From Amphiscolops sp. MND2022 (taxonomy: Eukaryota), in contig OZ076409.1 of the NCBI GenBank assembly GCA_964187785.1, positions 56,174,001 through 56,238,000 of the forward strand: DNA of 64,000 nucleotides. Direction: 5' to 3'. This document shows, one piece after another, positions 13,362 through 59,150 of the stretch (position 1 is its first letter; each line of letters begins with the position of its first letter). The position numbers were made by a program, and so were the translations under genes. The notes under the pieces were generated by a model, which saw only the letters and a program-made list of their open reading frames with translations, searched no databases and was not told where the DNA came from.

Positions 13362-14690
13362 GGAACTTAAAAAACAAAAACGATTATTTGTTGTTGCATT
13401 AACGCAATAAATGATTCTGCTTCAAACAGTCTTTTCGATATTTTAAGCATATTGTTTTTGCGAATTTCCAAAAGGAATTAAAAGGAACTTCTCTGACAAC
13501 AAAACGACAAAAATTACTCACTCATAATGCGGATTCTTCCGTCGAGAAAAGTCCCTGCTTCAAGCCGGTTACAGAAACTTTCGTTCTGGGTCAATATTCT
13601 AAGAAGACTTGCCCAAAATAAGGTGTCCACTTACTGTCCAAAGCGTACCTAACTCAACCACGTCAGGGAAATCATACATTTCTAAACTATATAGCACTAT
13701 TATTGACAAGATCAAAACCAAATTATATGGAGAAGATCTTTACATATTGAATGACAAAGCGACCGATGGAGCAGGACGGTTTGTTGTTGGAGTGTTCGTT
13801 GGTGATATTTCTAGGCTATCAAAGCCTCGCTTGGTCGATCTCGTCGAAATCAAAAAATCTGACCATTTTGGTTTTAACCACATAGTCTGTGTCTCCTTGG
13901 CCCGCGTATTTGAAGGTGGAATTCCGTATGATCGCGTCCTTCTTTTTACCAGTGATGGTGCAGCGTACATGATCGAAGCTGATAAAAACCTCGAAACGAT
14001 GTTTCCAAAAACGCTACATGTTACCTGCGTTGTTCATGAGCTTATGAGGGTAGCCGAGCTTGTCCGCTCTCATGATGCAATTACAGAGGGATATGTAATC
14101 AAGCCGAAAAAGCTTTTTGATCAATCCACTGCAAGAAAACACCAATTCAAACAACTTTAACCCTTACGTCTTCCTCTGAAACTTGTTAATACGCGATGGA
14201 ATACATTTTTGAATGCCTAATTCTATTATTGCGATCACTTTGACGAATTTAAGCAATTTCTTGTTCATTTACTTGAGCGCGACCAATACTTGATGAATGA
14301 ATCAGCACTTGAGCCTGTCTCACAATCAATTTCAGGATACTGACTGAATCAAAGATCAACTTCAATGGTTTATTTCGTTGCGCGACAGTATTCGTATCAT
14401 GAAGAAACTGCAAAGTTCATTGAAATGCGAGCCTTACGCAACAAAACTGGACCAAGTCCTGAAGAAAAAAGTCCACATTATTCGAATATGGTTCATTTAT
14501 ACGATGCCGCAAACGTTGATAATGTCGAAAAATCTCCAATTGAGTTATGCAGTGCCGAAACTTACGAAAACGCACCTTTGGTTTCGGCTGAAATTGAATG
14601 CGTGTTTTCAACTATGAGTGAATTTGTAACACCGCAGAGCATGAACTGGACTGTTGAAAACTTGAAGCATCATGTTATAATCTAGTACAA
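13362..14690 (+). mobile_element. Degenerate hAT-superfamily transposase (CGGBP1/DUF659-like)
   Basis: 'DKATDGAGR', 'LLFTSDGAAYM', 'HVTCVVHELMRVAE' (CxxH), 'VNTRWNTFL' and the dimerisation-like 'APLVSAEIECVFS...ENLK'. Stops and frameshifts are present. Confidence 0.85.
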
Positions 14691-18054: not shown

Positions 18055-20988
18055 ATGCCTCGATTCAAATTCCAAACTCCTACTGGTTCGATTATAATGG
18101 AGTTCGATGACACATCGACAGTTTACCAAGTGCGCATGTTTTTGTCGCAAACGATTGAACGTAAAGTACAAGGCTTAGTCGCCGTAGCCGAGAAGGGTTC
18201 TTCTTTTCATGCTGTATCACGATTGGCCGACAGTCAACGAATGCGAGATGTTGACAGAAAAGCTGTGATCTTATTGGATTGCGAAAAGCTCAAGCTACCT
18301 GAAAATAATCCTTTGAAGAGAGATACTCCGCATGAAACATCAAGCACTTCAGGTAAGCCGGTTAATCATTTTGTTGACTGTTTTCGATAGTTTCCAACTT
18401 TTCGAAATGGAAGTACAGGAAACACATTGTTCCAAAGGCTTTGAGTCTTGAACTTTTCAAGACCGGATGAAGCGAGGTGAAACAAACACCAATATATTGG
18501 ACATTTTTTTGAAAATTCAAAAGTTGTTACCATACTTTCCATTTCTTCCAAACTTTCAGTTTCTGCCATTGAGGTTTTTCTATAATTTGTGGCTCTACAT
18601 TGAGAACTTCAAAATTTTTGACAAAATGTAGTTCAGGCGACTGTGAGTAGCAAGTACCAAAACAATTCAAAAGCACTGCCCTCTTTGTTCTTTTCATCAT
18701 TGTTGTCGGAGCAGATCATGTCAAAAAGGATCTGACGAAGTATCAACGTAATTTACAAAGATAGAATCCCAGTCTTGAAGACACATGTCATGAAATTCAC
18801 ATCATTTTATAAGCACCAGATGGCTATGAGCTAAAAGTGACCTTTAGTGCTCTAAAAACAGAAGTAAAGCTCCGTGTCGACATTTCGTTATTAGTCAAAC
18901 CACTCGCTTCAACGAAGAGAGTCTTGTAGTAGATCAAAGCAATGAAGGGGTCGAAGTATTCAACTAATCTGAAAACTTCATTGTAAACGAAAACAGCTAG
19001 TATGGCATTGGATATTTTGCTTCCATTTTTTAAATGAATTTTGATATAATCAATTATAACCAGCATTAGCATAGTCAGTAGTATTTCAGAATGCAATGAT
19101 TAATGGAACAAAATAGCTGACAGGAAGATTTCGGTATCTTTAAAAAACAAGTATCAAAATAAACATTCTTTATCATTCACTGTCCATCTTATCTTTCAGT
19201 TGAAACCTTTTCGAGCAGAACTCAAGATTCTGAAGAAAAATCGAAGAAAAAGTCAGGGCTTCAAACATCAAAAGAACCACCGAAGAACCAAGGAAATGAG
19301 TCATCAATTCCATCTGGGCTGAGTCTGCCAGAAGTTCTGGATGAACTAGGCACTGATCCGAAAACCTCTTCGAACGTAAAACCTGGACAAGCTTTCGAAT
19401 CTATGTCAGACTGGAAAAATCCCAGCAATCCAATGCTAGCAGCGCTTTCCCTTTCAAATGGTCCTGGTGTCTTCGGCCCCTTGCCTTTCAACTTCAACCC
19501 ATTTCTGTTGATCCCAGCAGTGCTGAAGTATTGCATACACTTTGAAATCGATCATTTTAACATAAATGCCGAGATATTCTCACATGCTACAATGGGATGT
19601 ACGGCAGCTTCAATGGAAAAGGTTCAAATTGGTTTTCGTTTGACATAGCGGTCGATTTTCAGAATAAATGCTACTGTACTCAAAAAATAAAGACAGTCCC
19701 GTGATCGCTCGAAAAAAATTGATTGAACTGCAAAATTTCTAGATGGCAATTAACAAGATTTCGTGTGTTCAAAAAGCTTCATTAATGACAAAACATCCTG
19801 CAGTAAACAAACTAAAACCTTAATTAGCGACTCAAAAACATGATTATCGAAATAAGATTAATTTGGCAAAAACCAGACTATTTCTTTACAGTTTTCAATG
19901 GTAATTTCAATGAAGTATGCTTGAAACAGTGTGATTTTTCAGACACTTTCCTTGCCCATGGGAGAATTCATGGACTCTCAAGGCAAGTTTCTGCCCATTG
20001 TTAAGCACTTCATGAGGAGTGAAGAAGAGCGAGCGGAGATCTACTCAACTGTGAAGGCAGAACTGCGCAAGGCAGCCTCTGTAATGGAGCAACAAGCTCA
20101 GCAGAACCCCATCTCCTTTCCACATAGGGTGAGTCTTCTTCAAGGAACAGATTGAAATGGCCCGCCTGAACGGGTGTCAATGAACCAATGTTACGAAATT
20201 GTTCTTCCGCGGCAAAAACTATGCACTTTCTCAACATTTAATGAATGGATATTTCTGTGGCTTCATGTTGTTCTGTTAGTAGTATTAACACCCTAAGTGA
20301 GAAGAAAGATATAGTCTCAAAATTAAAATCAGTTTTTTGTTTTCTGCAGCTTAGCAACATGACTGCTGCGCGACTGAAGCCGGATGACAGAAGGGTCACT
20401 TTCCTCAACAGTCTCAGCAAGACTTCAGAAAGGGATGTCCAGAACTCAGCCGATATACCTCGACCACCAAACCTATCAGAACTATCCTTCTTCAAATTAG
20501 CTACCACTGCCCCTCCTCCTCCATTAGCATCGGCGCAGGCCAGCCAACCTATCACAGTACCTCCTTTAAACTTACCTAACAACCCTCCATTTGGGTCTCA
20601 AACGTCTCCGGACCACTCAAACTCATCACTGCCACCTAACTCTGCATTAGACCCGAACGCCAAGCGAATGCGTAGGCGAACTACAATTACAAGATCGGCT
20701 AAAATTGTAATGGTTGAGTGGTACTTATCAAACGGGAGATATCTCACGGCCGAAGGGCGTCAGCTTTTGTCAGGGCATCTTGGATTGACTGAAGAAAACG
20801 TTCGAGTATTTTTTAAAAATTTGAGAAGGCTTGAGAAAAAGTGTGAAGAAACGGGTACCCCTCTCATGGACGCAATAAACGGTGTAGACAATGAGAATTC
20901 TAACCTTAGTGAAGATCTTCAGCTGGTCAGTGGATCTTTCGATGACGATTCAAGTCCAACAATGATCAAACTTGAAACCATAGACTAA
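18055..20988 (+). CDS. CUT-class-like (SATB/ONECUT-like) homeobox protein, 514 aa: ubiquitin-like domain + degenerate CUT-like domain + atypical homeodomain. Exons 18055-18352, 19200-19621, 19943-20128, 20350-20988
   Basis: Four exons join through GT-AG introns with phases 1, 0, 0 and total 1545 nt. The homeodomain RRRTTITRSAKIVMVEWYLSNGRYLTAEGRQLLSGHLGLTEENVRVFFKNLRR (~20665-20844) has R5, F49, N51 and R53. The gene model is more certain than the family assignment. Confidence 0.85.
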
Positions 20989-21299: not shown

Positions 21300-23484
21300 T
21301 CACAAAACCAATATTTTGTTGGATAATCCTGATTTTGTATCACATCTGCAATTCAATCAGACAAGCACCGAACGAGGTTTACACACAATTCTTGCCCGAT
21401 TCCATATACCCAGACACTTTCCAGCACTTCTTTCAACGCTGATATCGAGGAAGGGGCGATTAGCCGAACCTTTTGTTTCACTAAATTCCAGCAATTTTCA
21501 ATCACATTCAGATCAGGAGAACTTGAAGGCCATGGTAGCAATTTAATCCCCTCGTTTTTGAACCAGTCTGTCACAATCCGCGCTTTAAGCGCTGGAGTTG
21601 AACCTTTTTGGAATTGCGTGGTCTCTGAATGCGTTGTTTGAGCATGGTCACACAAAAGTTTTAAATTGGGTTCGCCTGTTATAGTTTCGCCTTGTTGAAA
21701 TACGTTCTACTTCTGCAATTGGTTTTTTGCGTGGTCTCCTTGCCGAAAGCCTGAAATCATCAACCAAACGCCTTTTGACAGATTTTGCGCTGACCAGGAT
21801 ACGAAAGCATACCATCACTTGCATTGATTGTGCAATGCGGTTGGATGGTATGCTTGGACTTGTCATCACTTCCTGCTTCTCCTGATCATCTCTTGCCGAC
21901 GTTGTCACAACCCGCTCCCGGTTTGGGATGTTCTTGCAGACGTATTGCAATCGGAAGAGGGCACGGCTGCAACCTACGCTTTCCAAGATGGTTACTTAGT
22001 AACTAATTCTAAACTAATACTCATTTCCAAAATAAACTGTGACTGAAAATCCAAAATATACGTCTACTTTACGCAAGTTTCAAATGAAAAAGAAAAAAGA
22101 ACAAAATGAGCTAAAATGATTTCACGCATTTCTGGCAAGACGTTCTTGTCACGTCAGAACAGAAATATTCGTCACCTGGAAATTAATATTAAAAGATGTC
22201 TTAGAATAAAAGATCATAGATCAATCTAAACAGAAACATTCCCAAATCTTGCTTCGAAAAGGACATCAAACAAATCTAAAACAGAAAATACCTTGAGATG
22301 GCATGCCGAAAAAAACTAGGCCTTTTCTAAGAAAAGGCAACTCAAGTGCACTTTGAACAGCAATTAAAGTAGAATTAGGACGTCGGAGCGTTGTTAAGCA
22401 AACAAATATAGGCGGTACATCCAAATATTACTATACTTGTGACGTCAGTGCTACATCACTACCTAGTCAATTAACTAGAAGTATTCCAAATTACTCGTCG
22501 GTGTGACGTCACTAGCTTGGCAGCTAGTCAGAAATTCACTCCAAAATATGCGTCAGCAACTCGTCAAACTTGGCAGCTTGCCAAGCTAGCTGAGAAAACT
22601 TGTCAACGTGTTGTCGCAAATCCATCAAAATCGCCGTTTTAATCCATCCAAATTAGGAAAATGAACGCTGATTTTAGCGGAAACGATGTAAAGGAAATCA
22701 TTAAATTGAACCAAATGTAGCTAGGATCATTACGATACATATGCCGCAAAGAACTAGCAAGATCTTGCTAGTTCATTGCGGCATATGTATCGTAATGATG
22801 AAAGTAAAATTTAGCGAAATTGCGTCTATCCTTCGTCGACTAAAATATTATTCGTTTAAAATTACGCTAAGGAATAGTCTAAGTGATATTTTTCCGCAAC
22901 TTATGAACAAAGTCACATGTTATATTTTAGTACTGAATAAACAACTGTATTTTGTAACATGAGAACATTTTTTCTATATTACCAATATAATGCGTGTAGC
23001 CCGTTGCTTGATAACACTTTGTATTCTCAACTTGTCAGTTTATTTTTGTATGACGTTGTCACCTCGCTGACATATATTGAAGAAATTCATAGACTTGTTA
23101 ACTTTGATAGAAAACCCCACTCAGTTGAATATTAACTCCAAGTGAACTACCAATACTAATGTGCATTGATTTTAACGGTGTTATTAAAATCACTACTTGA
23201 AGTTTTCTGTTGTGTTTAGTTCTGGTTTGTACACTTGGCGTGCTTGTCTCGTAAGACTGAAACTATTGCCAATGTGCTAATTTATGTATTAATAATCGTA
23301 AATGTTAATTTTAGTCCCAGCTCCAGTTTACCCGAATGGTTTCCTAGCATCATTCAAATAACCACAACTTGAAAATTTATCATAGCATTTTCTTTGAGTA
23401 AAAATTCAGAATCAGTTATTAATTGTTCACGTCAGCGTCATCTCCACGTCAATTTTCCTACGAACCAAAGCAGCAAAACAGGGA
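21300..23484 (-). mobile_element. Degenerate Tc1/mariner element (transposase ~21300-21990 plus long 5' region)
   Basis: 'LLPWPSSSPDLNVIENCW' is the Tc1 WPxxSPDLNPIE motif; 'SAKSVKRRL...ARRPRKKP' is the second HTH/NLS region. Frameshifted and internally deleted. Confidence 0.9.
22726..22799. repeat. 74-bp near-perfect palindrome without a spacer
   Basis: atcattacgatacatatgccgcaaagaactagcaagatcttgctagttcattgcggcatatgtatcgtaatgat, with a single mismatch at 22750/22775. Confidence 0.95.
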
Positions 23485-23699: not shown

Positions 23700-26600
23700 T
23701 AAGGAATAAAGTCGTGATCAAATGATGCTAGGAGGGTATAAATACGATGCATTTTGTAGGTTAAGGGACTCAGTCTTTACATCTGTGGAATTCAGTTGTA
23801 CCGCTATATTTTGATTTTTTTGGTTCAATTCCCAACTTTGTTGGAAATACAGTTCAGAATAAAAATTCAAACTCAATCTCTTCTTTCATAATGTCGACCA
23901 CAAGAAGCCAAAAGAGAAAGAACAACCAACATGGAAACAACGAAAGTTTAAGTGAAAGTCCAGTTTCACCAAAAGTAGTAGGAAATCCGTTTCTCGGATC
24001 AAGACGTAAGCATTGAGGGTCCTTCAAGACCAAAATCCCCCAGAATTGAAAAAACCTCTCAGGAAATTCGAGAGCTTCTTTAAAGGAAGAAATAACTTCG
24101 GAAATTAAGGGTTTTCTCGTAGAATCTCAGAAAGAGATGTTGAAACTGTTAAAACCCAAAACAGGGGAAAATATAAGGAAGAACATTGAAGAAGAAACGG
24201 AAATTGAAACCAGGAGTTTTTACACTCCTACAAAGTCAGTTAGGATCAATTCTACCCAAAATAACGACACGACCGTGAGTCGTAACATGGTGACAGGAGT
24301 GCTAACCGACTCCACCAACCACCCAAAAAGACCAAAAATAAGGTCTCAAAGTGGCCAGAACACCTTTTGGAGCGGGAAACAACGACAACACTACGCTACT
24401 TATGCCAAAAGCCCTAACGACATCACTCCCAACGTTTGATGGGAAATCTGAAAAATTTGAGTTTTTCAAAGACCTTTTCCGCAACAATATTAGAATGTAT
24501 CCACACCTAACGGTAATCCAAAAAACTAACTAATTTCACTCCCTACTTCCCGGAGACGCACTACAAGCGTTTTGCAACATAGAAGATTCGAAAAAAGATT
24601 CAACGGAAGAAATAATGACGGTCTTCAAACGTCGTTTTGACGACTACCTATCAATGGCAAAGGCCAGATGCGAATGGGACGCGCTCAAATTCGATCCCTC
24701 AACGAAAAAATTTCACGAATTTTTAGATGTACTTCAAAAAATCGCCGAAGAAGCCTTTGGGTCTGAGGCCAAACAATTCATAGACAAGGCAATATACGCA
24801 AAAATGCCTGATCACGTAAAGAAAATACTCAACGGAGCATACCTCGAGGACAAGCCATTCAATGACATCGTACTCCACCTGGAGAGAGAAATGAGACTTA
24901 ACGGCCTTGGAGCCCCGGATGACGTCATTTTGGTCCCCTTAAACAAAATAGAACCCGCTCAAACAAAAACTGAAATCAAACCAGCCCAAAATACTACCCA
25001 GAACATCAAAAAAAGGTATTGCTTCTACTGTTACATGTTCGGCCATTTCAAAGCAGAATGCCAAAAAATGAAAAGAGATAAATGGCACCACACATGGAGA
25101 TACAACAACCAAACCAAAAATAATGCAGGCATTACGCTTAAAGGCGACACTTGCGGCAAACCCCATAAAACGGAAGATTGTTGGAATGGAGCCAACTCTG
25201 CCAACGATCCACGACCTAAGCGTCACTTCCAACAAGAAAAAAAAAGACGGATACCTCCGTCCAACAAACGAAATCCAAAACAACCGAAGACTCAAAAAAC
25301 TAATTACGCTGCGCCTGCGCTTCGGGAAACAACAGACGCGAGGGCGTACTCAATAGAAGATCCCTCCACCAAACACAATAACGAGGTACCAACGGAATGC
25401 AACGGGACACCCACAGAAGATTGGCTAAGACGACGAGCCATCGCCACTATAAAAAGACACAACGCCAAACACGAACAACGAAGAGAATGCCCAAACTGGA
25501 TCAATGACTCAGAAGGTCAATATATGACGACAAAGAAACCATTACCAGAATCAGACCAAGAAAGAATCTGTGTATTCGACAAAGACTACCGATGTGACCC
25601 CTGGGACAGTCCCGATCTCTATGACCAATCATCCCTCACCTTCAAGGAACAACCCATTGCGCCAGTAACAGACAAAAATACAAACGCCTTCGATGAGCAA
25701 TCACCATCACCACTACCAAAAGAAGATATCAACGGCTCCACCACGAAATCTATCTTCCCGGATCACTTCCCCGTCTCGCTCAACTCTATCAAATAATACA
25801 TAACTGAAAAAGACGGAGACACTTATATACCACTACACTCGACAATACCGCTGAAAAAACGACGACTGATGCTCTACCTACCACTCGAGTTCAGCGAAAT
25901 AACAATGGACTGACTTGTCGACTCAGGAGTGTTCATCAACGCAATGTCGTGGTCAGACTACAATCTAATCAAGATGAACAGCGACAACTGCGTCATCAAG
26001 GAATATCCGCAACTACAATTCAAAATTGAGTGGGCACATGCTCAGCTAGAACAACAAATAGCCACAGCGGATATACTTTTCAACATCGGAACCTACACAT
26101 TCACGGACAACTTCGTCATCCTCTCAAAGACATCTTTCCCCATAAAAGGGTTGAAATTCATGCGAAATCATCAAGCGGTGCTAGACACAGCGAACGGAAC
26201 CATCAACTTCCCGCACGTTGAAATGACGCTGGTCATGACAGATGAAATGAAAAACTGCAATCCAAAACCGCTTCAAATAATGGCACATGGGAACCAAACG
26301 CTATTGCCCAACAAACAACAACAGTAAAAGCGATAGTAATCACCTTGAATACAAATGACGTCACTGGGACGGTACAGCAATTACCACAATTCTATGAGAC
26401 AGCCACCATCATCGTCGCACCAGCGCTGGCGACAGCTCACAACAAAAGAATCAACATCAGAATAGCCAACCTAACGGATTTCCCACATACAATGAAAAAT
26501 CACACCAAACTGGAGTAGCTACAAATCCTTAAACCTGAACAAACGAAACAAACACGACACATTGACGCTGCCGCATTCAAACAATTGCAAGACCCTGATA

Positions 26601-28390
26601 ATACTCACATGTATGTGAATGAACTCATCAAATGCAATGAAAATGAACAATATGATGAATATTTTTGGTTCCCTACACCTGAGAATCCAGGGAACAAAGA
26701 AGTGCATACGCCAATGCAACGACGAATATTGAAGAAAATCCGTGAACTCAATAAAAAAGAACAGTTAGAGCCAACGAAAGACCAAACATCAAGAAAATTA
26801 TTACTAGAAATGTTTCAATGGGAAGGCTCTCAAGTTGAAGGAAATGACAGGAAACAATTAGAGCAAACGATAGTCGAATACAATGATATTTTCGCGCTTC
26901 ACCGACTTGACATTGGCATAAACAACACTTTTAAAGTAAAACTAACTCCGAAGGATGAACGTCCAATCTACACACAAAGCCTAACGGTACAAATCAACTT
27001 GAAAGAAGACTTAAGAGTCGAATTGGCACTAATGCACAGGTACGGCATAATAACGACACTACCATTTTCAAAATATGCAAGCCCGATTTCCTTACAACGC
27101 AAACCAAATGGAAAATTTTGTCTACTTGTCCACCTACGGAAAATAAATGCACTAATCTCAGATGATTACATTAACAATAATCAACCAGTCAGCACCCTGT
27201 CAGACGCAGCACAACACCTACCCGGTAAAAAGTTGTTCTGCAAATTAGACTGCTCTCAGGCATATACCTGCCTACAAATGGCAGATCAACGATCGATAGA
27301 AATGCTCGCCTTCAACTTGGCATGCAGAACGTTCACCTACAAACGACTAGCGCAAGGATTAAGCAGAGCCCTATCAGCATTTTCAAGTTTCATGCAGGAG
27401 TATTTCGACAAAGTGATCAAACCCGACCAGTGTGCACAATACGTGGACGACATTGGAATAGCCGCCAATCCAATGACGCAACTAATACGCAACATTCGGA
27501 GCGTCTTTGAATGCAATTGACAAGTAGGACTCAAACTATCTATCGACAAACGCCACTTCGGAGTAACTAAGGTCGAAATTCTTAGAAGAGCCATAACACC
27601 GCAAGGAATCGCCCCCAGGACCACAAAATCCAAAAATTATCAGCAAACGTGCGATTCCCGAAGTCAGAGAAACAAGTAAAAAGACACATAGGCTTTGTCA
27701 ACTATTATCGCATCTAGATGCCGCAGCTGTCAAAAAAATTACTTGGATTTTACGAACTTTTGAAAGCAGATATACAAATCAAGGTGACTCAAGACTTACT
27801 AGACATTTACAAAGCGATCAACGCAGCACTAGCGGAAGCATGCGGATTGGCCCTCAAACAACCAATCACAGGACGTCAATACGTCCTAATGATGGACGCC
27901 AGCTTCCGCGCCTCAGGATATACGCTAATGATCGAAGAAGAAAAAGATAAAAAACTCAATTCCAAAAAAAAATGTGTCATCACCAGCACAACGGAAAATG
28001 TCAATTTATTGTAAAGAGTTTTTGGCAATATATCACGCATCTTTAGAATGCTGCCAAATATTGTGGGAAACAACTCTACATACACTGGTAATGACCGACA
28101 ACCGATCGGTAACACGCTTTATTCAAACAAAGGCGATCCCGACCACATTATGGAACGCATGCGATTATGTGCTACCATTCAACTTTCACATCATGCACGT
28201 AGCAGGAACGCAAAACACAGCGGCAGAATTCCTATCCAGAACCGACCTCAACTCTAAAGAAAGAATCGAACGAAAAATCAGAAATGACATCACGATCCGA
28301 ACAATACAAGTCAACCTACAATCAACAGACGTCGCAGACGCAGAACAGCTTTTTCTTCCCAGAAGAAACAATTGAAACTGAAGAAGAGTG
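23700..28390 (+). mobile_element. Ty3/Gypsy LTR retrotransposon, degenerate and 3'-truncated before integrase (partial 5' LTR, gag, protease, RT, RNase H)
   Basis: TATA (tataaata ~23737) and AATAAA (~23858); gag zinc knuckle CFYCYMFGHFKAEC; protease 'LVDSG' (~25915); RT 'KLDCSQAY', 'LAQGL' and 'YVDDI' (~27440); RNase H 'DAS' and 'TDNRSV'. Stops and frameshifts throughout. Confidence 0.93.
24288..24301 (+). other. Putative primer-binding site (tRNA-Leu-like) directly after an LTR-end-like ...CGTAACA
   Basis: cgtaaca|tggtgacaggagtg. It differs at one base from the complement of the metazoan tRNA-Leu(CAG) 3' end (TGGTGTCAGGAGTG), as recalled from memory. Confidence 0.55.
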
Positions 28391-29444
28391 TTGGCGCCTC
28401 AAACTTTATTCAGAAAAATTGAAGAAAAAATAGGTCGAATTAGCTGATTTCAAAATGCTGTAAAAATGTGTAGAATTGAAATTGAGTGCTAGCTTTCCTT
28501 CCCTTCGACATATTTTGACCCAAATGAGATATCTAGACTATAAAATCGAAAATCTGAGCCAAAAAATTTCAAAATCTTTTCTTCTGGATCTTTTTTGATC
28601 AATTTTTCAAAATGAGTGCATAATTGAGCTTCATTCTTTGTATCGTATTTAATTGCTTATGAACGCCATATTGGGGCTATGTGGGCGTTCCTAGTACCCA
28701 CGAGGGGTATTTGAGACAATTGCTAATTATTTAACAGCAAATAACACGTGTAAAACTATGCCTTGATCTTGCTAAAATGTATGCTTTTCATATATACTTT
28801 TACATAATTTTTTGTATACTTACTACTCAGCAAGGCAATTTATATCAACTTACTCTGTATATCAAGGCGCTTTTATGATGATGGTAAATTTGACCACAAA
28901 CATTCGCCATGGGTTATTTCCTGTATGCTAAAGTAACCAGAGTTAACTTCAACCAAGACCCAGAACCAAGTCACAGAACTCAGAACCAAGAAGAGATCCC
29001 AAATCGGTCGACTTTGCTACTCAAGTATTGAAGAAAGTAAACGCTTGGAAGTTTCTCGTTCATTTAATTCAATTAGGTTTGGCTATTGGAGAGCTTTTTT
29101 TGAGTTGAACAAGTGATATTATTGTTTCGAAATTCCAACATCAATTTACCTATATTGCATATGGTTGCGATATTTCAGCTCGAGAAAGTTATTGTGGACG
29201 CAAGGATTTAGACTTATCGTTTGGTTTAGCAGATCAACCACGCTTCTCCGTATCGAGACAGCTAAGTTGATTCCTATAGTCATCGTTTAAAATATCGAAG
29301 TTACTTTATAGTTGCGAAACAGAATAAGTGTAAAGTCAAAGATACAGTAATTGCTTCACCGACATCAGAAACTTATTCAAAGTAACTCTAGCTGATTTTC
29401 AATTGAAGATAGATGCGATATCATCTATTCAAAGTTTCAAAAAC

Positions 29445-32745: not shown

Positions 32746-35700
32746 TCAGAGGTACCACAGTTTATCTTCAAGCTGGGGGTGTGATTTTCCTTCAATGTTC
32801 ATACCCACTAACTGGGCTAGCTTGTGTGCGTATTGGCAGGGGGCCGGTACTCTCACGCTGCCGGGCCAGTTGTAATATAAAAACGTCATCTTGAAGGCGA
32901 GGCTGAAACAAATAAGACTTCGTGTGAATATATTTCATGATGTTGAAATCATTTTTCCAATTTCAAGAAATGTTTTCGAATATTTTGACAAAAAATATAT
33001 AGCCAAAAACTCAGATGTTGCCCTAAAATAAAACCATTTGATCAACTAATAGCTTAAGTAATCAATAACCTTTGAATAGGAGATAAACGAGGGGCCCGAA
33101 CAGGAAACCATAAAAAATTTTATGCAAAAAATTTGACAATACACATTCTTCAAAGACAGAAAATTCGAAGTTTCAAAACAGAGTTAACATAACGTATTCA
33201 AGTGACACAGACTCTAATATACATGTATTTGAGTAGTTTCCACCATATGGGTCAACATCCAGCATCCAATGTTCGGTCTAGATGCAATGTCAACGACATT
33301 TAATCCATCATTTATGTAGAAAGTGTTTGACATATTCAGCAAATTCAGCTTAAGCTTGAATTTAGCGTGAATATCATGGAAAAAATCATATAATTATATA
33401 TCGAGAAGAGCTCAAGCGAATTAACTTACTTTTGTAGTGAGTCGATGGAGAAAGGTTTGGGTGAATTGAAGCCGGAAGAGTTCTCAGAAACAACGTATCT
33501 GGTTGGTGTGACAGTGCCTTGTCTCACGTGCTGGCTTACCAGATAAAAATCAAGGAAACCTCTTTTGGTTATGACTTTGTCCACCACCGTTCCCGGCTGT
33601 GCGTTAACAACGCCAGAGTGACCATACGCAAAGATCCTAGTCGAGATTCTTTTTTGCACAATGATAAAAGCAAATCCAGGGGTGTATTTCTCAGAGATCT
33701 CTCTGAACGCTTCCTTCATTAACACGATCTCCGTTTCTTTCACTACTTGAATTTGGCCATCGCCCACGCCGTCACGGAAGACAACAATGTTGTCGGGAAA
33801 GAAGCCGTTTTCCTAAATAGAAAGTTGTTGACAAATGTGTAGAACCAAATGTATAGAATCGTAGCAAGACAATTCGTACACAAGACGTTTCGGACAAAGT
33901 ATAAAGTCGGACATTTCGTGCAAAAATAAAATCGGAAATTTCGTACACAAGCGGATACAAATTTGAGCTTACACGAACAAAACGATTTATCTCACATCAT
34001 TTTGAACTTTTTACCTCATTTTAATCTCGTTATCTCACTTTAATCTCGTTTTTACCTCATTTTAATTCAAATTTAGTACGAAAAGTCTTGTGCACGAAAT
34101 AACCGCTTTCATTTTTGTACGAAACGTCCGGTTTTTGGCCATTGTACGAAACGTCCTATGTACAAATTGTCGTGGTGCCGTATAGAATAATTGTGAAGCA
34201 AATTAGAGTAAGGCGATTAATTCGAATTATTTGCAAATAGAAAATAAAACTGAAAATAGGAAAAACTAAATTGTTCTTCAGCCAAATATTTTCTAGCGGA
34301 GACATTTATTCTATTGGTGGTTCAAATGAGACACAGCGTTATGCTCAACCTCAATATCTTGTAACTTGAACATGGGGACGCTCAAGAATGTTTACGCTCA
34401 AGATAATTGAATAAAATTTTACAAATAGTCACACATTTGGTGCAGCGTGATGAATTAACCACACTCTAATTAACCATGAACAGCTCTGAAAATATCATTT
34501 CGGATAAGAAGGCGCAATGAAATTCTCACATTCAAGAGAATTTTCCTCCTGTCGAACATTCAACAAAATGCAGTGATTTTTAAATGGCGTTGTATGTGCA
34601 CAATTACCTGTTATTAACCCATTATTAATTGTTTCCCTGTGCCTTTTCTTCGTCACCCCTCATAGACAGAAGACCATAACAGAGAAATCGGATAATTTAG
34701 TCACCAAATTTCGCAAACTTCATCAAAGTTGCTCACAATAACATTTAGTGACGATGTTGGGGCTGACAGATTGACAAATTTAAAAAATACAAACCAACAA
34801 CAATTTTCTACAACATGGGATGCGAATACTTCAAGAAAATCGCACCCTCTGAAGCTCTGAACAAAATTCTGCCTATCGCAGAAGTTTAAACCTCCTGGAA
34901 AGATTCAAAAGGACGAAGTGTCACTTGGAAAAAGGAAATGATTTAATGACATTTGAGACTCAGATTGCCGAAAAATGTTCCATATTGTGAAAATTTCGAA
35001 TGAAAAATTTAAATAAACAAAATCCTTAAAAATTCATAAAACATGCATTCATGTTCGTTTGAAAATGATACAATAACAAGCCAGGAAATACATAAGTTGG
35101 CGCCCCGTTTTTAGGCTCAAAAAGACCGAAAGTACTTCTAAGAGTCAAGGATGGTCTACTGAAAAATAGGTCCCTGCGGGGCACAGTATTATTTCTGCTT
35201 TTAGCCTTTCATGTTCAATAACAGAAGCATATCTTAATCATTTATATAGCGCACAATCAATTGACCAGTTTACATCGCCTTTAATTCTTCTCGTACTTAA
35301 AACAACTAAGCGTATACCAAGTTTCGCATTCGCATTTGAATGCAGGCGAAGTTCTCGTCGAACGAATAATTAACACTCGTTCGCTTCATCTCAAAGAATT
35401 CGGCGTACGAATGCATAATTACCACTCGCTCGTTCCATCGCACGAGAAACCGAATTGTTGTCGGCAGCTTGAGAAATTTAAATCTCACGCTTATACTCAC
35501 TGCCGAACAAAATATCTGCATTTTTCAGTATCACGACAAGAATTGTACTGAACAAAAAAAGTTGATTTCTTGAGATTTCAATAATATTCCTGCTATCGCA
35601 GAAATAATAATGATTTTTCAATGTCACAGTACCAAAAACAAAAGGAGACCATTTGGGGCTTAACCCTAAATGTACAAAAATTTCACGAAGCCATCCAAAA

Positions 35701-38700
35701 ATCTAGCGCTCAAACTTTAAACGGCAATACCTTCTAAACTATTCAAGTCCAACAAACAATTCATAGCGCGTTTAAAAGACAATCAGGGCTTTCAAAATGA
35801 TTCAAATCGGCGCCAAAACATTATAAAAAAATTCAGTATTTTCCAAAACATGCTACGGCCGTTGCGACACAATCTTTATACACATGGAATAAAATGGCCA
35901 CAAACGAAAACTGGAAAAACTGAAAATGTGCACTCCGGTTTTTAGTCGGCGTTTTCGAAGAAAATCCCGACTGTTACAGTGGCTAGTTTTTTATCCGTCA
36001 GTTCAACGCGAAACGTCCACTTTTTGTGCATTAATGCACATTTACCAACTTTTACCATATGTACTTAGTATTTCATTTTCAACGCATCCAAAGCCTCTAA
36101 CATGAGATAAAAAGCCATTCCAAAGCAGAAGGGTCCACTTTTTTCGACACTATGAGACTTTCCTCCTTTGTCGGCACTGTGAGACTGAATTTTTTCTTAT
36201 TGTTCCTCCCATCAATTTTTGATATTTTGCAACAGAATGGATGTTCAAAAAATCCCAAAGCGTCCCCCCTTTTACATTTTTCGGCAATATGCGACTTACC
36301 GGCAACTTCAAAAAAATTTCGAAAAAAAATTCGGAATTTTTTTCTCAAATTTTAGTTTTTTGAGAGCTTTTGTTGTCTCCAGTTGTAGAAAAAGTGGTTT
36401 TCGTTTTAGAGTCTTTTTGAGCCTTGGATATAGCGCCGACTTGGGCCGTTCCCGGCTTGTTCGATATTCAGGCCACAATTTCTTGATTTCAGAGTCATTA
36501 AGTGCATAATTCGTGAAGAGGCGTTCAATGCTGTGTAATATTGTCTAAAAATGTTATTCAAGAGTTTTTCCCCATACATTCAGCTAGTGCCTACAGAATT
36601 TTGGAGAAACTAATTGGTACGAATACGACCCAATCGTCCATTAGGTTTAAAGTGGCCCTTTTTGCTTTCATCTTCATCAGAAACAAAAACTTCTTTCCAC
36701 CAGAAACTATAGAACCAAAACGAGAACCATTTGTGAAATGAAGTGTGGAATTTTGAATATTTTGGCTTTCGGCATGAAATGGTCACTGTGACCGGATTGA
36801 AAGAAGAACGACGAAAAGTCACTATGAAAGTCTCGTTTTATTTCATTAATCGCCGACTAAAAAGACCTAAGACGAGATTCGCAAAATTTGAGCTATAGAG
36901 AAAGTTTGGTTTGAGCAAACAATTTCACCAATTCTTCCAGGTACAGTTCCGTGAAAAAGAAATCACACGAGCGATTAGGGGCTCAGTCTTCTCGAAATCG
37001 GTCGATAACTTTATAAAAAACCTAATGCTTCTTACAATTTCTTGTTTTCTGAACTAGTATTTTTTTGGAATTTTAGAGAAAAATTATGAAATTACAACTA
37101 GATTTTAAAGAAAATCAGGACTTTTTGCCGTTTCTCCAAATTTTGACGATTTTACGTACTGCTTTTTCTGGGCTAAACATATTCGACCAACTACACCAAA
37201 CCTACCGAAGCCATGGATATATTTTGATCTCAAAAAGAGGCCCTTGTGGGGCAGAGTATTATTTCTGCTTCAGGATTCCATTTCCAATAAAAGAAGCATA
37301 TCTGGAATACCTAAACACCACTGTTTTATCATCATATAGCGCACAATTATTCACTGTACCAGTTACCAGTTTACACCACCTTTAATTCGTCTCGGACTAA
37401 ATTTATAAAACAACTCAGCGTATACGAAGTTTCGAATTTGCATTTGAATGCAGGCGAAGCTTTCGGTAAAAGAAGTAATACTCATTCGCTTCATTCCAAT
37501 GAACTTGGCGTACGAATGCATAAATTAACACTCGCTCGCTTCATCGCACAAGAATTGAATTGTCGTCAGCAGCTCGAGAAATTCAAATCTCGCGCTATAA
37601 ACTCACTGCCGAACAAAATATCTGAATCTTTTCCAGTAGGTACTCGGATAACGAACATACTCGGCTGAAAAAGAACAACCTCGCTTTCCAGTTTCTATAT
37701 TACTCCTGCTATCGCAGAAATAATAAAAATGACAAACCCGAAAATGCGGGCTATCGTAAAATTCCAATTTAAATGTTCTATGATAGGAAATCTAGTTTTC
37801 GCGGTGAAACCTGCTATCACTAATTCATTTAAAACGTTTCTGGCACAAAAAAAATATAACACTGGAATTTAGACAATGTGCGGAATCCATGCAAGTTCTT
37901 GAAACTTTTTCAAAACCTGCTCAAAACTGGGAAATATCTGAAGTGCTCTTTCTGCGCCTGAAATTTCACTTAATGCACCGGGGAATCCACAATGCGTCGA
38001 AACCCTAAACATCCGAAGTTCAAAAATGATTTCAGACAGCAAAAATTTTCTTAATCGTGGATTCTGATTGATTGAAAATAAAATCGACTGGAATTTATTA
38101 CACAGTCAGCTAAATTCTCATTCACCTAGTACCCTAAATGCAAGAGCGAAGCAAATTGGCATGCCACTATTAGTCAAGCAGCTGGTTTTGACGAAGGCTG
38201 ACTGACCTGGAGGTTTACACTCAGTTGGTTTGAAAAGTTTTGTTCTGAAATTTTCGGAAAATTTCAAATCTGACTTCATTTCCTTGAAAAACTTCAACTA
38301 AATTAGTATAAGCTGCTTTAAGTTGTTAGATACTTGTGAAAATTTTTGATACTAGTATTTTCGAATCATAACTATTTGTATCATTTATTACAAACCTCTT
38401 TGTATCTATATAGCGCTTTTAGAGTAGCATTTTTGAGGTGATTGGTGACCAGCTCCTCTCCAGTACCCTGAGAAAATGATTGCGAAAAGTATTTGGACGC
38501 TCCTGGATTGCGCGAGGCCACGAAACCCACAACACTATTCGTCTTGCCGCGGGCCTGATGGTACACGTCCATACCAATGAACATCGTTTTGGCCTGCCAA
38601 CATCATACATCTTAAGTACGACAAACCTAAATTGAAACAAACGCACTGCTGTGATCCGAGAGAAACACAATGATGTTAATTTAGAGACAGTAAATTTCGA

Positions 38701-41700
38701 TGGTTCACTTGCAAAATTTCACTAACATTTGTCCGTAGCGAAAAATATTAACAATTGAAATGCGCTTAAGTCTGAGCGTCAGAAATCAGCGACGGGTAGA
38801 AAATTCCATTCACACTTTGATCCTGTTTGTAAAATAACTGCAGTAGCCTTGAACAAATACTGCCAATTATGCCTTTAGGGAGTTAGCATCAAAGCTCAAA
38901 ACTCAAATTAGAAAAAAGCCAGTACATGGGGTTTGGTGAACCCAGTGAACGAGATTCCCAATAGATACCTCGTTGTACTATATTACATCAAGGCGCAATT
39001 TTCAAACGAAGAAATGTCGCATGCAATCGCATCCATATCAAAACGTCCTCTTAGTACAGGGAGATATGTGCTAAGGAACTAGAGATGGGCGCCACGCCGC
39101 CGCCGACGACTTGGTTGACCTCCAAGGCGTTTACGCCGATGTATATCCGCGTACGCTGGCGTGAACACATACCATACTGTAATAAATGGATTGGACCCCT
39201 GATTGTAAAAAAAATGATTTGGACTGAAAATAAATTAGCTCGAAACCCGAGTGATTCTGTAGGAAATGAAAAAAAAAGGTTTGATCAAATATTAATAATT
39301 TTGTGAAAACACGTCAGAATCATTGTTGCAAACAATTTTGGGGCTTGGTAATATCACTTTCAACAACTTGTACTAAATTTTGATCTAGGAGCAAATTTTT
39401 GCAAAATTAGACGTCTCACAGACGCAGTACGTGAACAGTATTTGTTATCGACTTATTGTTTTCACGCCGGCGACGCCGCCGCCACCAATCGATTTTTGAC
39501 CTCACGCCGCCGCCGAAAGAAATAGAAACGGCGCCCACCTCTATAAGGAACTAACGTGTTCATCGTTAAATTATGTGAAAAGAGGTCTATCAATTTTTCT
39601 TTCAAAAATCATGGCTGAGAGATTAACGTCTTTTTCATATGGAATATGGGCGGAAAATAACTTCGAGAACTTAGCGCTTAAACTTTTTCCGGCTTTTCAT
39701 TTTCCACCAGGTGATAGCATTGAAGATACTTTCGAGAGAAAAAGTCTGCCTCATTCTTATAGAGCTTGAGCAGAAAATTAACAGATCCCAAGTTTGGTAT
39801 AAATTTCACTGATTAGTTTATTAGGCATGTCTAACTAACAAAGCAAGGCGGGATATTCATCTCCCACAGTTGTCCACCCATTTTGGCCACCATTTGCAGA
39901 GCAATGTTGAGAGCGACCCGTCTCAGTTTTGATTTATTGCCAAGAGTCTTTCCCACAATGCACTGAGACGCAACAGGCATTTGCATACACAACAGTTTCT
40001 TAACTGCATTGTACCGGACTTCATGCTGGAAACTGAAAACGGTTACGGCTACTTGGACCTGAAATGAAAAACTAATGCAACATGGACAGGGTTCGTTGAT
40101 GGGACGTTTTCTACCAACAAAAAGCTTCTGCAAAAAACACCCTTTTCGAATATCAAATTTCGCGTTATATCTAAGAAACCATTGTTGGTTTAAAACAGCG
40201 TTTGAGATCAAAAAATTGATTTCAAATAACGAGAACAAAAATCAAAATTTGGAACCACAATCAATAATCGCATATAAAATGACAGTTTTGGAACTTTTCA
40301 GGGCTAAATTTATTCTGAATTTAAGAATTTCCGAACATTTTGCCTTGCTCCCATTTTTTCGTTAGCAGTGTCGAGTGGACGCCATGTGAACAAGCTTCAT
40401 CAAATAATATTGAAGTTGGGTTAAAAATGGACTGAGTTATTCCAAATAGCAGAGCATTCAGTTTTGATGCATTGAATCGAGGTTTTAAAAACTTTCAAAT
40501 AAACATCAACAAGATAACCCTTTCAATTCAACCTTTTTCATATCTCGGAAGAGATGAGTTGTCATAGAAATAACGCCTGAATTGCGGGTAAAATACTAGG
40601 TTTTTATTGGTCCAAATAAAATTGGACACAAAATGTCAATGGTCGTACTCACATCTGCGGTGAGATGTTGTTTCAACGCCTGGATGTAGTCCTGATCTCT
40701 GTCACTTTTTCCGAGTTGCACCAATTTAGGAGGATTTTGGACAGGAACGCCTACTGCTGGTAAGCACTGTTTGATCTGATGCACGAAGTCTGAAAAAAGA
40801 GAAACATCATTCATTGATTCAATTGCAAAATTTCGGTAGCGTACTTGAAATCGACCATAAAAAGCAAACCTCAACTCAGGCTTGAACATATCGTAGCATC
40901 ATGCTCTGTGATAAAGTACAAAAATAGCTAGCATCTCTGCTACAAAGCCATTTAAATTTTTTTCGAGTACTGTAAACTTCGTTAGGAAACTTATCGTTGC
41001 AATGAGATGTGATTCTAACCATTGACTGCTGCAGCGTCTCTTTGCGTATGGATAATTAGCCATTTGCTTAGCACCCCTCGGCCGATGAGTTGCTTCTTCC
41101 CTAGACTTTGGCCGAAGTCTGCCTCTGGACCAACTCGAATTTCACCTCCGGGCCCGGCAAACCTGATGAGACACAAAAATATATTTCGAGAATTCACTCT
41201 GAATTCGCAGCATTTTCATAAAAGACTTTGGCATGCAGAGAACACTAATAACATTCCTAATTTTCAAGTTTATTGCTGCTCGAAGATGTTTTCCTTCAGT
41301 TAAATACCTTACTCTCGTGTTCTTTCGTTATACCATAAAGCCAGGAAATTTTCACAGAAATGAATACTAGTACTGTATATACCAACCTCACAGTAGTTCC
41401 ACCCATGATGTTCCTAGCCTCAATTTCGACAGGGTTAGGACTTAAAGAAACACCCCAGTTGTTTAGTTCTGCCGATGCCTCTGGGTTTTCGTGAATACTT
41501 CGAACAAATTTTTGCAGCGCCTGAACCCGATTGGCTGGATTCGGTCGTGTATGCTCTGCAATGTCCTTCATAACGTGGAAGTTTTTTCTGATATCTTCCG
41601 ACAACCCCGTTAGATGGCACAATTCAGGAACAAGGTATATTAACTGCTCTCCCATCTAATTTAAAAAACATAAAAGCAGACAATTACCGCTATTGCATCA

Positions 41701-44700
41701 AATGTTTCCGAAACTCATCTGGTGGAAACTTAAAAGGTCTTTACAAGGCTTTGAAATTTTCTGCAAACCAGGAATAAGATAAACCCATCCTTTCAAGACT
41801 GTAAACTTTAACCTTAACTTGGCCAATGTGCCAAATTTGGCACATTTTGTTTCTGCAAATTCTTAACGCACCAGCTGATTGTATGGTAAAGCAAACCCTT
41901 TAATAAGAGTTTCAGACAATATTGCATAGCATTCGGCGCCTTTTCACGGAAAATTGACGTGATGTCTCAAAAACCCAGAAAATGACGCAAAAAAATCAAA
42001 AGAAAAATAAGTGCAGATTTTCCGTTTTCCCAGTTTTCGTTTGTGCCCCTTTTATCCCACTGGTATCAACATTGGGTCAAAGCGTCCCCAGCATGTTTTG
42101 AAACATGTTGAAAAGCAAGCAGAGACACGAGGCGTGCAAAGTTTTGGCGCAAAGTTCGGAGCCAGTGCGGCGAAGCCGCACGCCAGCGGAGAACTTCGCG
42201 CAAAAAACTTTGCGCGCAAGGGGTCCGCGCTAGCGGGCCCCAAGCCCAGCAGTTTAAAAATTGATTTGAAAGCCCCAATGCTCCTCTTTCGAACGCTGTA
42301 TAAATCGTTTGTCGGACTTGTATAGTTCAGGAGATATTGCGGTTTAAAGTTGAAGCACCTGATTTTTGGACGCAACAAGATTTTTCCTGGCCAACTTAAG
42401 GTTAACAAAAAAATACTAAAGTTTTCAAATTGCGCTCAAGCTATCTTTTTCAGTTGTTTTAAGTCCTGAAATGAGTTTTTGACTCATTTAGGCCAAGTTT
42501 TGAGCTTTTCATTTTCGTCGCGTTAACCTTAACTTGGCCAATGTGCCAAATTTGGCACATTTTGTTTCTGCAAATTCTTAACGCACCAGCTGATTGTATG
42601 GTAAAGCAAACCCTTTAATAAGAGTTTCAGACAATATTGCATAGCATTCGGCGCCTTTTCACGGAAAATTGACGTGATGTCTCAAAAACCCAGAAAATGA
42701 CGCAAAAAAATCAAAAGAAAAATAAGTGCAGATTTTCCGTTTTCCCAGTTTTCGTTTGTGCCCCTTTTATCCCACTGGTATCAACATTGGGTCAAAGCGT
42801 CCCCAGCATGTTTTGAAACATGTTGAAAAGCAAGCAGAGACACGAGGCGTGCAAAGTTTTGGCGCAAAGTTCGGAGCCAGTGCGGCGAAGCCGCACGCCA
42901 GCGGAGAACTTCGCGCAAAAAACTTTGCGCGCAAGGGGCCCGCGCTAGCGGGCCCCAAGCCCAGCAGTTTAAAAATTGATTTGAAAGCCCCAATGCTCCT
43001 CTTTCGAACGCTGTATAAATCGTTTGTCGGACTTGTATAGTTCAGGAGATATTGCGGTTTAAAGTTGAAGCACCTGATTTTTGGACGCAACAAGATTTTT
43101 CCTGGCCAACTTAAGGTTAATGTGATGCTCAGTATGCAATGGTAACGATGAATTACAGTCCTGTGATAGAAGAATGGAACCCCTGTTTGGTAATTAAGTT
43201 TGGAACGCATAATGAGTTTGCAAATTTCTCAGAAACTCAATTTTTTTTCCAAAATGTTAGAAACAAGTTTCTTGGATTTTTGTCTAGTTTACATTCCTTT
43301 AATTTGGAGGTTTTAAAACTAGTATGAGACAAGTTGGCAAATAATAACTTTTACATGTAAAATTTTGCATATTCATTTGAAGAGTCTAAATTAGGAGCGG
43401 AAGCTGGTCATTATTTACTTTTTCATATTGTACAAGGTGCCCATCATTTACAAATTACACTCGAAAATTTTTTGCTCCCTAGAGTGTACATGTAAAAAGA
43501 TAATCACATATCTAAAGTCTCAGGTCTATACCCAATCTTTATACATATACCGGAAGTAATTCAGAGGAGAATAACGATTTTCTTAGTTCGTGTAAATACT
43601 AAGTTAACAACCATACCTCAGGATTACGGCGCTTCTTTGCTCGATGGAGAAGCAAAGGCTGTTTATCGTCGACGATGGTTAGTCCATAAACTGTAGCATA
43701 ATATTCCATGAAACTGATCTCAGAGCCATCTTCTTTGGTGAAGGTGCAAGAGGGGTTCATATCCCAATGAATGTCGTCTATTCGATACGTTTTCTTGTTG
43801 TATCGCGTCAACACAACTTCATTGCATAGCTTGTGACCGCAAACTTTTTGAAAATCCTCAGGGGAAGCACTTCTATAGATGTCGTTCCTGAAACGAATGA
43901 ATCAACCGTGAGTATCCCAGATTACACATCTCGGTTTCTACAGAAAAATGTCACAAGTTTGACTCATGTCAAACGTGAGACACCATGTTCCTATGCCCGC
44001 TGATAGAAGAAACAACCACAGATCTCAAACGATTTCGGGTTACAAACAAGTTCAGTATTCAGGTTGCTCAAGTAATTTTGTTCTGTCCTTACAATAATGC
44101 AGGTGCATTTGATGCAATGGCGGTAATTGTCTGCTTTTATGTTGATTTTTTTTCTGAATCTTTCTCTACTTAGATGGGAGAGCTGCGAATAATATAGGTT
44201 AAGAGACGGAAATGAAAAACCCTGTCCTGGTACATGTGAATACCATAAAAACGATCTTTATGTAGAATAACTAACATGGCATCCCAGACATTCTGCGTCC
44301 GGACCACCCTATGGGACACGTCACAGGTGAGCAGTAGGCCGCCATCTAACGAGGCCACTGTAAGAGCATACCCTGGCCAAATTTCGAGACTGAAATGAAA
44401 TGGAAAAATGAGTTAGAAGCATAGTAAAAATGAAAAAATGAGTAAATATTGAATGCATAGTAAATATGGAATGATCAAAAGGATGGATACTCACTGATGA
44501 CGCTGTATTTGTATAGGATTTGATGTCAAGAACGCTGCCTTCTTTTCTACCTTGTACTTCAGAATTTTCATCAACCTGAAAAAAATAAACACTCAAATTG
44601 AATTGATCGCGAAAAATTGAATGAAAATATTTTTAATGAAATTATTCAGCTCCAGCGGTTCTTCTATGCACAATCGAGCTGCCCTTTTACCTCTATACCA

Positions 44701-58700: not shown

Positions 58701-59150
58701 AGGTTTCGTTGTTTTTCATCACAACTCAACCTCGAAACCTAACCACTTGCAGAAATATCACATTTGGGTGTGTGCCAATATCCCCAAAAAAATCACAACA
58801 GTGAAGCAATTCGTATATGGAACAAAACCTTGAATTGATAAAATGAAGTGTTAATGGAACTATCTCACCGGGTTGTGATGGTTCTTTCAGCTCAAGTGCG
58901 GCGACGAACCAACAAAACAGCGTCAGAGATGTTGTCCAGTTGTCTCAAATTCAAATCATTGCCATCCCTGAAGCTATTCAACAAGCACATCGCAACATTT
59001 AGGCTCCACATTACTTTCTTTGCGTGTAGTCGCTGTTTTATCAATTTGCGAAGAAAATATACATACAAGAGACGCTCTGTCAAATTTTACAAGTTTAATC
59101 AATCAACGCTGGATATTTGATTATTTTCGAAATTAATCTTTCTTGGAATT

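Follow-up and report, generated by a model that had tools for sequence, protein, structure and literature searches.

A stretch of 64,000 nucleotides from the acoel Amphiscolops sp. MND2022 (assembly GCA_964187785.1, contig OZ076409.1, positions 56,174,001 to 56,238,000; hereafter the window) carries a four-exon gene whose 514-residue protein holds three conserved modules in a single open reading frame (ORF). These are an N-terminal module that is likely a beta-grasp (ubiquitin-like) domain, a degenerate CUT domain and a homeodomain whose residue 48 is phenylalanine (F48) and whose residue 50 is lysine (K50). The gene belongs to an unnamed CUT-class homeobox family of acoels and Xenoturbella which, as those groups are defined, is not part of SATB, Compass or Onecut. 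In the explanation preferred here the gene likely encodes a transcription factor of the nucleus, and the half made up of CUT and homeodomain probably goes back to a common ancestor with vertebrate SATB. The homeodomain would do the DNA reading at TAATCC-type sites, while the CUT domain of acoels would no longer read bases and would be conserved for a role in structure or in protein binding. The N-terminal beta-grasp may oligomerise or dock cofactors, as the SATB ULD does, and a lysine near the C-terminus (K509) may serve as a SUMO switch. The explanation as a whole is given a probability of about 0.5.

The spliced exons total 1545 nt, which corresponds to 514 amino acids and a stop codon. All three introns are of the GT-AG type and the GC content is 0.43-0.50 in the exons versus 0.32-0.37 in the introns. 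A HMMER search of 1.84 billion proteins returned 36 matches at E <= 0.001 and, besides the exon 4 frame of the window, only one of these (P0002) is close, with a homeodomain that is 88% identical. The cluster of P0002 contains a full-length RefSeq protein from Convolutriloba macropyga, XP_075243282.1 (P0037), annotated as uncharacterized, which aligns end to end with the window protein. Identity between the two proteins is 57/80 (71%) in the N-terminal module, 71/95 (75%) in the middle module, 56/65 (86%) in the homeodomain; the C-terminal tail reaches 69%. Since identity is high in the modules and low in the linkers (28/110, or 25%, and 21/115, or 18%), all three modules are under selection. 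The splice points between exons 1 and 2 and between exons 3 and 4, predicted from the DNA, fall within the unconserved linkers, and the junction of exons 2 and 3 opens no gap in the alignment. An earlier note on this DNA, made from the letters alone, had proposed an intact four-exon gene of this length, and the coding frame, the introns and the alignment to the C. macropyga ortholog bear this out.

Further orthologs were sought by motif in the supplement of a 2018 survey of xenacoelomorph homeobox genes (PMC6125248), across 13 species sections. Eight entries were found, from Isodiametra, Symsagittifera, Hofstenia, Convolutriloba, three more acoel entries and Xenoturbella bocki (among them Ip DN65824, Sr DN122932, Hm DN36591 and Xb DN91240). 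Seven of the eight transcript ORFs carry all three modules and the remaining one is without its 5' end; the homeodomain of the Hofstenia ortholog is incomplete in the ORF as printed. Since the modules stand together in transcript ORFs of the orthologs, the possibility that exon 1 has no connection to the homeobox exon is removed. The Xenoturbella ortholog shares 16 of its first 20 residues with the window protein (by eye). The survey filed the acoel genes as 'PRD+ANTP/ANTP ambiguous' and Xenoturbella DN91240 as 'CUT class ambiguous' without uniting them as a family, and the term 'SATB' is absent from its main text. In the nemertodermatid sections of the supplement no ortholog was recognized by the family motifs. 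One entry of the supplement, Nemertoderma Locus_53646, combines a CUT domain and an F48 homeodomain with a long, different N-terminus and is a candidate nemertodermatid member.

None of the 36 HMMER matches is an ortholog from outside the acoels, a weak blank because the same library also missed the Xenoturbella ortholog. Word-index protein searches matched none of 1674 candidates for exon 4 (against longer proteins), none of 157 for the middle domain and two of three for exon 1, both near-identical fragments. One protein, P0041, holds an exon 1 frame whose first 79 residues are those encoded in the window, after which it differs; it is not present in this genome and probably comes from a close relative with a fully conserved N-terminal module. 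As to the relatives for which the earlier note had suggested a search, orthologs came to light in seven acoel entries and in Xenoturbella. When the Amphiscolops genome was searched with exon 1, with exon 3 and with the homeodomain, the sole match in each case was the window itself; such a search scores only the best candidates, and distant paralogs could escape it.

The middle module, read earlier as a CUT domain spanning exons 2 and 3, is identified by several comparisons. The Pfam table of the survey gives CUT for the Xenoturbella ortholog DN91240 (PMC6125248). In the ESM Atlas, residues 212-300 of XP_075243282.1 rank CUT clusters first to third (0.88, 197/256 features), followed by HNF1 and POU; scores below 0.9 in this resource are taken as leads only. 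A hidden Markov model (HMM) of CUT was built from four Onecut/Cux segments of this genome, and its real score was reached by 2 of 1000 shuffles of the window domain and by 1 of 1000 shuffles of XP_075243282.1, compared with 804 and 304 of 1000 for the N-terminal controls. A glocal CUT profile gave 4 and 0 of 150 shuffles, and hhalign was weaker (9/200). Two results count against the assignment: Pfam CUT has no match on the acoel domain (a Pfam scan of exons 2 and 3 gave zero matches), and no solved CUT structure matches the acoel domain by PDB sequence search. An AlphaFold model of the CUT stretch of XP_075243282.1 (three rows) has five helices, of which the second and third begin, as in SATB1, at positions 390 and 402; with a predicted local distance difference test score (pLDDT) of 49 the model is too poor for a fold test. 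Fold searches with it gave a best Z of 3.9, to unrelated helical proteins, and a best E of 3.1, with no CUT chain listed. The protein has only one conserved block of CUT size and no match to CUTL (PF16557). The CUT label is well supported, and on these sequence comparisons the gene is assigned to the CUT class.

The acoel CUT domain has lost its base-reading residues, as the earlier note had remarked for the window. The CUT domain of SATB1 reads bases via Gln402 and Gly403, which are held by Gln390, and binding is weakened ~50-fold by Q402A, ~10-fold by G403A and >10-fold by S406A (PMC1976457). In SATB1 numbering the window protein has A390, H395, A402, A403, E406 and S410, so that it carries at positions 402 and 403 the very changes that weaken SATB1 binding ~50-fold and ~10-fold. 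Among the acoel entries (by eye), Q390 and Q402 are found in none of seven, G403 in one of seven and E406 in all seven; the Xenoturbella CUT retains Q390, R395, Q402, G403 and S406 (by eye). The net charge of the domain is -3 in the window protein and -1 in XP_075243282.1, versus +7 and +6 in the two Onecut CUT domains. Despite the lost DNA-reading residues, the acoel CUT is 75% identical between two species. It is thus a natural, strongly conserved domain with substitutions that cripple DNA binding by SATB1, which points to a second job for the CUT domain.

The homeodomain (Pfam PF00046, E 3e-9) has 61 residues, including R5, I8, G23a, Y25, R31, V47, F48, F49, K50, N51 and R53. With R5, Y25, R31, V47, N51 and R53 kept it should bind DNA, and its basic N-terminal arm is likely a nuclear signal. 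Homeodomains with K50 recognize TAATCC-type sites (the K50 rule). F48, K50 and a one-residue insertion, all three noticed earlier, are present. The insertion lies between helices 1 and 2, where the 61 residues align with SATB1 without gaps and with Gly opposite Gly (by eye). This register is supported by L8/M16/F20 in Xenoturbella, where the inserted residue is Ser; phmmer argues against it, placing the gap for the extra residue in the N-terminal arm and not in the loop. F48 together with a one-residue insertion between helices 1 and 2 marks the SATB homeodomain (PMC3784565), and position 50 is Lys in Compass and Gln in SATB (PMC4901127, Table 1).

A special closeness of this homeodomain to that of SATB1, as had been claimed earlier, is not supported by identity. 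Counted by eye against the sequences that the supplement of PMC2211742 gives, identities are 22/60 to a generic consensus, 18/61 to SATB1 and 13-14/60 to ONECUT1. Engrailed and Bicoid head the PDB matches, and SATB lies outside the best 60 of 142 matches. The homeodomain and SATB1 have six non-consensus states in common (I8, A12, the inserted Gly, Q32, S35, F48), and of these S35 and F48 also occur in Onecut. When 31 homeobox loci of this genome (of 82 matches) were compared, ANTP and PRD types scored highest and Onecut was near the bottom with a local score of 41. On the homeodomain by itself, therefore, the gene is not placed. A SIX origin, suggested by K50 and W19, was rejected as there is no SIX-domain Pfam match and the upstream domain is a CUT.

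The N-terminal module is likely a beta-grasp (ubiquitin) fold, an assignment that stands as a lead only. Pfam OTU1_UBXL gives E values of 0.09-0.16 in two species (0.16 in the scan of the window gene), and ubiquitin-like clusters appear at 0.88 in the ESM Atlas, ranked behind unnamed clusters. Against a glocal profile made of ubiquitin-like domains from this genome, 18 in number, the module reaches z 3.2, and 1 and 3 of 150 shuffles attain the real score. Other results do not support the fold. The local ubiquitin HMM is not significant (156 and 141 of 1000 shuffles), nor are the pairwise ubiquitin scores (z 0.2 and 1.15) or hhalign (12/200); the ubiquitin-fold test failed in two of its four forms, and PDB sequence searches with the module returned nothing relevant. 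An AlphaFold model of exon 1 from one sequence begins with two strands and a helix, with a pLDDT of 50 that is too poor for a fold test; a fold search with it gave a best Z of 5.5, to unrelated helical proteins, and no ubiquitin-like chain was listed. Prediction of a two-copy complex scored 0.01 against a mark of 0.32 and gave no usable model. The ubiquitin-like label, given in the earlier note as a ubiquitin/UBX beta-grasp, is weakly supported.

The likeness to the COMPASS domain, or ULD, that had been drawn earlier was not upheld. Even with E values as high as 10 allowed, Pfam ULD (PF16534) is matched neither by exon 1 nor by proteins P0037 (the C. macropyga ortholog), P0038 and P0040-P0042; no other exon matches it, and a KWN motif was not found. 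Dve and SATB1 are reported to share 62% identity in the COMPASS domain (PMC7873079), and a true ULD should for that reason be visible, which tells against a SATB-type N-terminus. Given this conservation, and the 16 of 20 N-terminal residues shared by Xenoturbella, some other ubiquitin-like domain appears more likely than a diverged ULD. The ULD of SATB forms tetramers that are required for DNA binding (PMC3351170).

The protein ends in a psi-K-x-E SUMO consensus, a motif that occurred within the last 12 residues in 42 of 10000 shuffles. It is found near the C-terminus in all seven orthologs with a visible end (by eye). SATB1 has a predicted SUMO site at K744 (PMC7779526). The parallel is only a weak one because the psi-K-x-E motif is common.

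Part of the case for common descent with SATB comes from Xenoturbella. SATB has Leu at position 404, where HNF6 has Thr and CDP has Ser (PMC1976457), and the Xenoturbella CUT has the SATB state, Leu404, as well as R395, A397, I408 and Q420 as in SATB1 (by eye). The comparison is weakened by L398, G399 and S401, which are Onecut states (by eye); over SATB1 positions 395-410 the Xenoturbella domain matches SATB1 at 9/16 and Onecut at 8/16 (by eye), nearly a tie. A P-x-P-W motif is present in all four Onecut/Cux segments of this genome and absent from the Xenoturbella ortholog. SATB is not known to have it either. Together these traits lean, at about even odds and by comparison of residues and not by a tree, toward an ancestor common to SATB and the CUT-homeodomain half.

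A serious contender, somewhat less probable, is a Onecut duplicate that dates to the stem of the xenacoelomorphs, acquired a ubiquitin/UBX-like domain of unrelated origin and then diverged, so that the likeness to SATB reflects convergence and shared Onecut ancestry. One CUT with an F48 homeodomain is the Onecut layout, Xenoturbella adds a helix-2 SQQLGL stretch to its Onecut states (by eye), and the N-terminal module resembles OTU1_UBXL and not ULD. The blank outside acoels in 1.84 billion proteins also fits this account, but the library that gave it missed the Xenoturbella ortholog too. On this account Leu404, the lack of P-x-P-W, the loop insertion and a beta-grasp at the N-terminus would all have had to recur independently, and the homeodomain is far from the Onecut of its own genome, whose score is among the lowest of the 31 loci. 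Besides a Cux-like locus, this genome already holds two of Onecut type. The Cux-like CUT exons (L004 and L005) lie ~6 kb apart at ~23.31-23.32 Mb (G000:C10). The survey counts no Cux in xenacoelomorph transcriptomes, and its entries Nw 35933 and Xb DN95119 look Cux-like by eye (PMC6125248).

It is unlikely that the gene is the missing xenacoelomorph ortholog of Compass/Dve, reduced to one homeodomain and with a CUT domain gained or kept. The gene shares K50, W19 and N44-V45 with Dve homeodomains (by eye), the survey records no Compass in xenacoelomorphs (PMC6125248) and this genome gives no ULD match; yet W19 is Tyr in Xenoturbella, the gene itself has no ULD match, its residue 48 is Phe and not Trp, and it has one homeodomain, not two, without the 10-residue insertion between helices 2 and 3. 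Still less probable is a homeodomain of ANTP, PRD or SIX origin that was shuffled beside a CUT, leaving the gene in the CUT class by its passenger domain only. The Engrailed and Bicoid matches in the PDB, the ANTP/PRD-type matches in this genome and the 'PRD+ANTP ambiguous' label of the acoel genes (PMC6125248) favor it; against it, these matches rest on consensus residues, an F48 homeodomain with an upstream CUT is a CUT-class pairing and a SIX domain match is lacking.

SATB has been called vertebrate-only (PMC10515288), and its origin has been modeled as shuffling between Compass and Onecut genes (PMC3784565) or as descent from a primordial COMPASS/CUT gene, with gain of SATB in vertebrates versus loss elsewhere called unclear (PMC7873079). 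If the shared ancestry preferred here is correct, the layout of ubiquitin-like domain, CUT and homeodomain would be far older than vertebrates. The presence of the family in Xenoturbella and acoels makes the question of gain versus loss directly testable. A bolder and doubtful reading is that the family is a living descendant of the primordial COMPASS/CUT gene from which SATB and Compass have been proposed to stem, with Compass derived and the acoel CUT turned to a role other than DNA reading; the SATB layout would then date to the first bilaterians. Even if the likeness is convergent, the gene represents an unnamed CUT-class family that is kept across a phylum. Caution on novelty is due since PMC8526749 and its preprint claim SATB homologs with 'all three functional domains' in spider and scallop. 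The orthologs described here were already listed, unclassified, in the survey of 2018 (PMC6125248). No paper linking SATB to xenacoelomorphs was found in a literature search whose coverage leaves out subscription papers.

The coordinates of the gene and of other elements in the window are collected in Table 1. Besides the homeobox gene the window holds transposon remnants and a gene of the Argonaute/PIWI family, the latter on the opposite strand.

Table 1. Features of the homeobox gene and other elements of the window (positions counted from the first letter of the window)
Feature	Positions	Strand	Remarks
Exon 1	18055..18352	+	ATG at 18055; residues 1-99; orthologs start at the same Met
N-terminal module	18055..18288	+	Residues 1-78; conserved, likely beta-grasp (ubiquitin-like), not Pfam ULD
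Intron 1	18353..19199	+	GT-AG, 847 nt, phase 1
Exon 2	19200..19621	+	Residues 100-240; linker, conserved Pro/Phe-rich lead-in from ~19472, CUT helices 1-3 from 19523
Degenerate CUT domain	19523..20044	+	Residues 208-274; interrupted by intron 2 behind the position equivalent to SATB1 407
Intron 2	19622..19942	+	GT-AG, 321 nt, phase 0; protein collinear with the C. macropyga ortholog across it
Exon 3	19943..20128	+	Residues 241-302; CUT helices 4-5
Intron 3	20129..20349	+	GT-AG, 221 nt, phase 0
Exon 4	20350..20988	+	Residues 303-514; stop at 20986-20988
Homeodomain	20665..20847	+	Residues 408-468
C-terminal SUMO consensus	20965..20976	+	K509; after an acidic tract
Candidate polyadenylation signal ATTAAA	21026..21031	+	
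Likely hAT-type transposon remnant	13603-14685	+	DUF659 E 2e-4
Tc1/mariner-type transposase remnant	21353-21995	-	DDE_3 E 8e-9; ~370 bp past the homeobox gene stop codon
Broken long terminal repeat retroelement-like stretch	24050-28430	+	Reverse transcriptase E 6e-12, RNase H E 1e-4, in different frames
Multi-exon Argonaute/PIWI-family gene	33426-47806	-	Pfam Piwi E 3e-33, 8e-13, 2e-9; PAZ E 4e-25
Two near-identical copies ~715 bp apart	42011-42435 and 42726-43228		Within a PIWI-gene intron (repeated ORFs)
Overlapping frameshifted ORFs	59121-61098	+	No convincing Pfam match; could be a tyrosine-recombinase-type transposon remnant (by eye)

Among known systems, amphioxus Acut and the oyster CUT clade I resemble the family in being unplaced invertebrate CUT-class genes. 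Compared by homeodomain alone, Acut and oyster CUT1/2 differ from it in that they have W48, carry no insertion and all lack K50. Orthology to Acut was rejected since its homeodomain has W48, Q50 and no insertion (by eye), as opposed to F48, K50 and the insertion. COMPASS/Dve proteins share K50 with the family and, if the lead on the N-terminal module holds, an N-terminal ubiquitin-type fold. Their ULD is conserved, their two homeodomains have W48 and a 10-residue insertion between helices 2 and 3, and a CUT is absent, whereas the family has one F48 homeodomain that lacks this insertion, plus a CUT. In all 5 xenacoelomorph transcriptomes of the survey the count of both Compass and Satb is zero (PMC6125248). 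Searches of this genome gave no ULD and no CUTL match, blanks that do not show absence.

ONECUT (HNF6) resembles the family in pairing one CUT with one F48 homeodomain, and the domain is picked up by the CUT profile built from this genome's Onecut/Cux segments. It differs in having M50 and a 60-residue homeodomain, as against the K50, 61 residues and loop insertion of the family, which is also without P-x-P-W and has an extra N-terminal module. From SATB1 and SATB2 the family is set apart by the lack of a ULD or CUTL match, by one CUT and not two and by K50 in place of Q50, and the acoel CUT additionally lacks Q390, Q402, G403 and S406. Two of the resemblances are diluted since F48 is also a Onecut trait and CERS homeodomains also carry a one-residue insertion. 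With SATB1 and SATB2 the family shares the order of a (likely) ubiquitin-like domain, a CUT and a homeodomain, the combination of F48 with a one-residue insertion between helices 1 and 2 (Gly as in SATB1 in the window protein, Ser in Xenoturbella), Leu404 in the CUT of Xenoturbella, and a SUMO consensus at the C-terminus.

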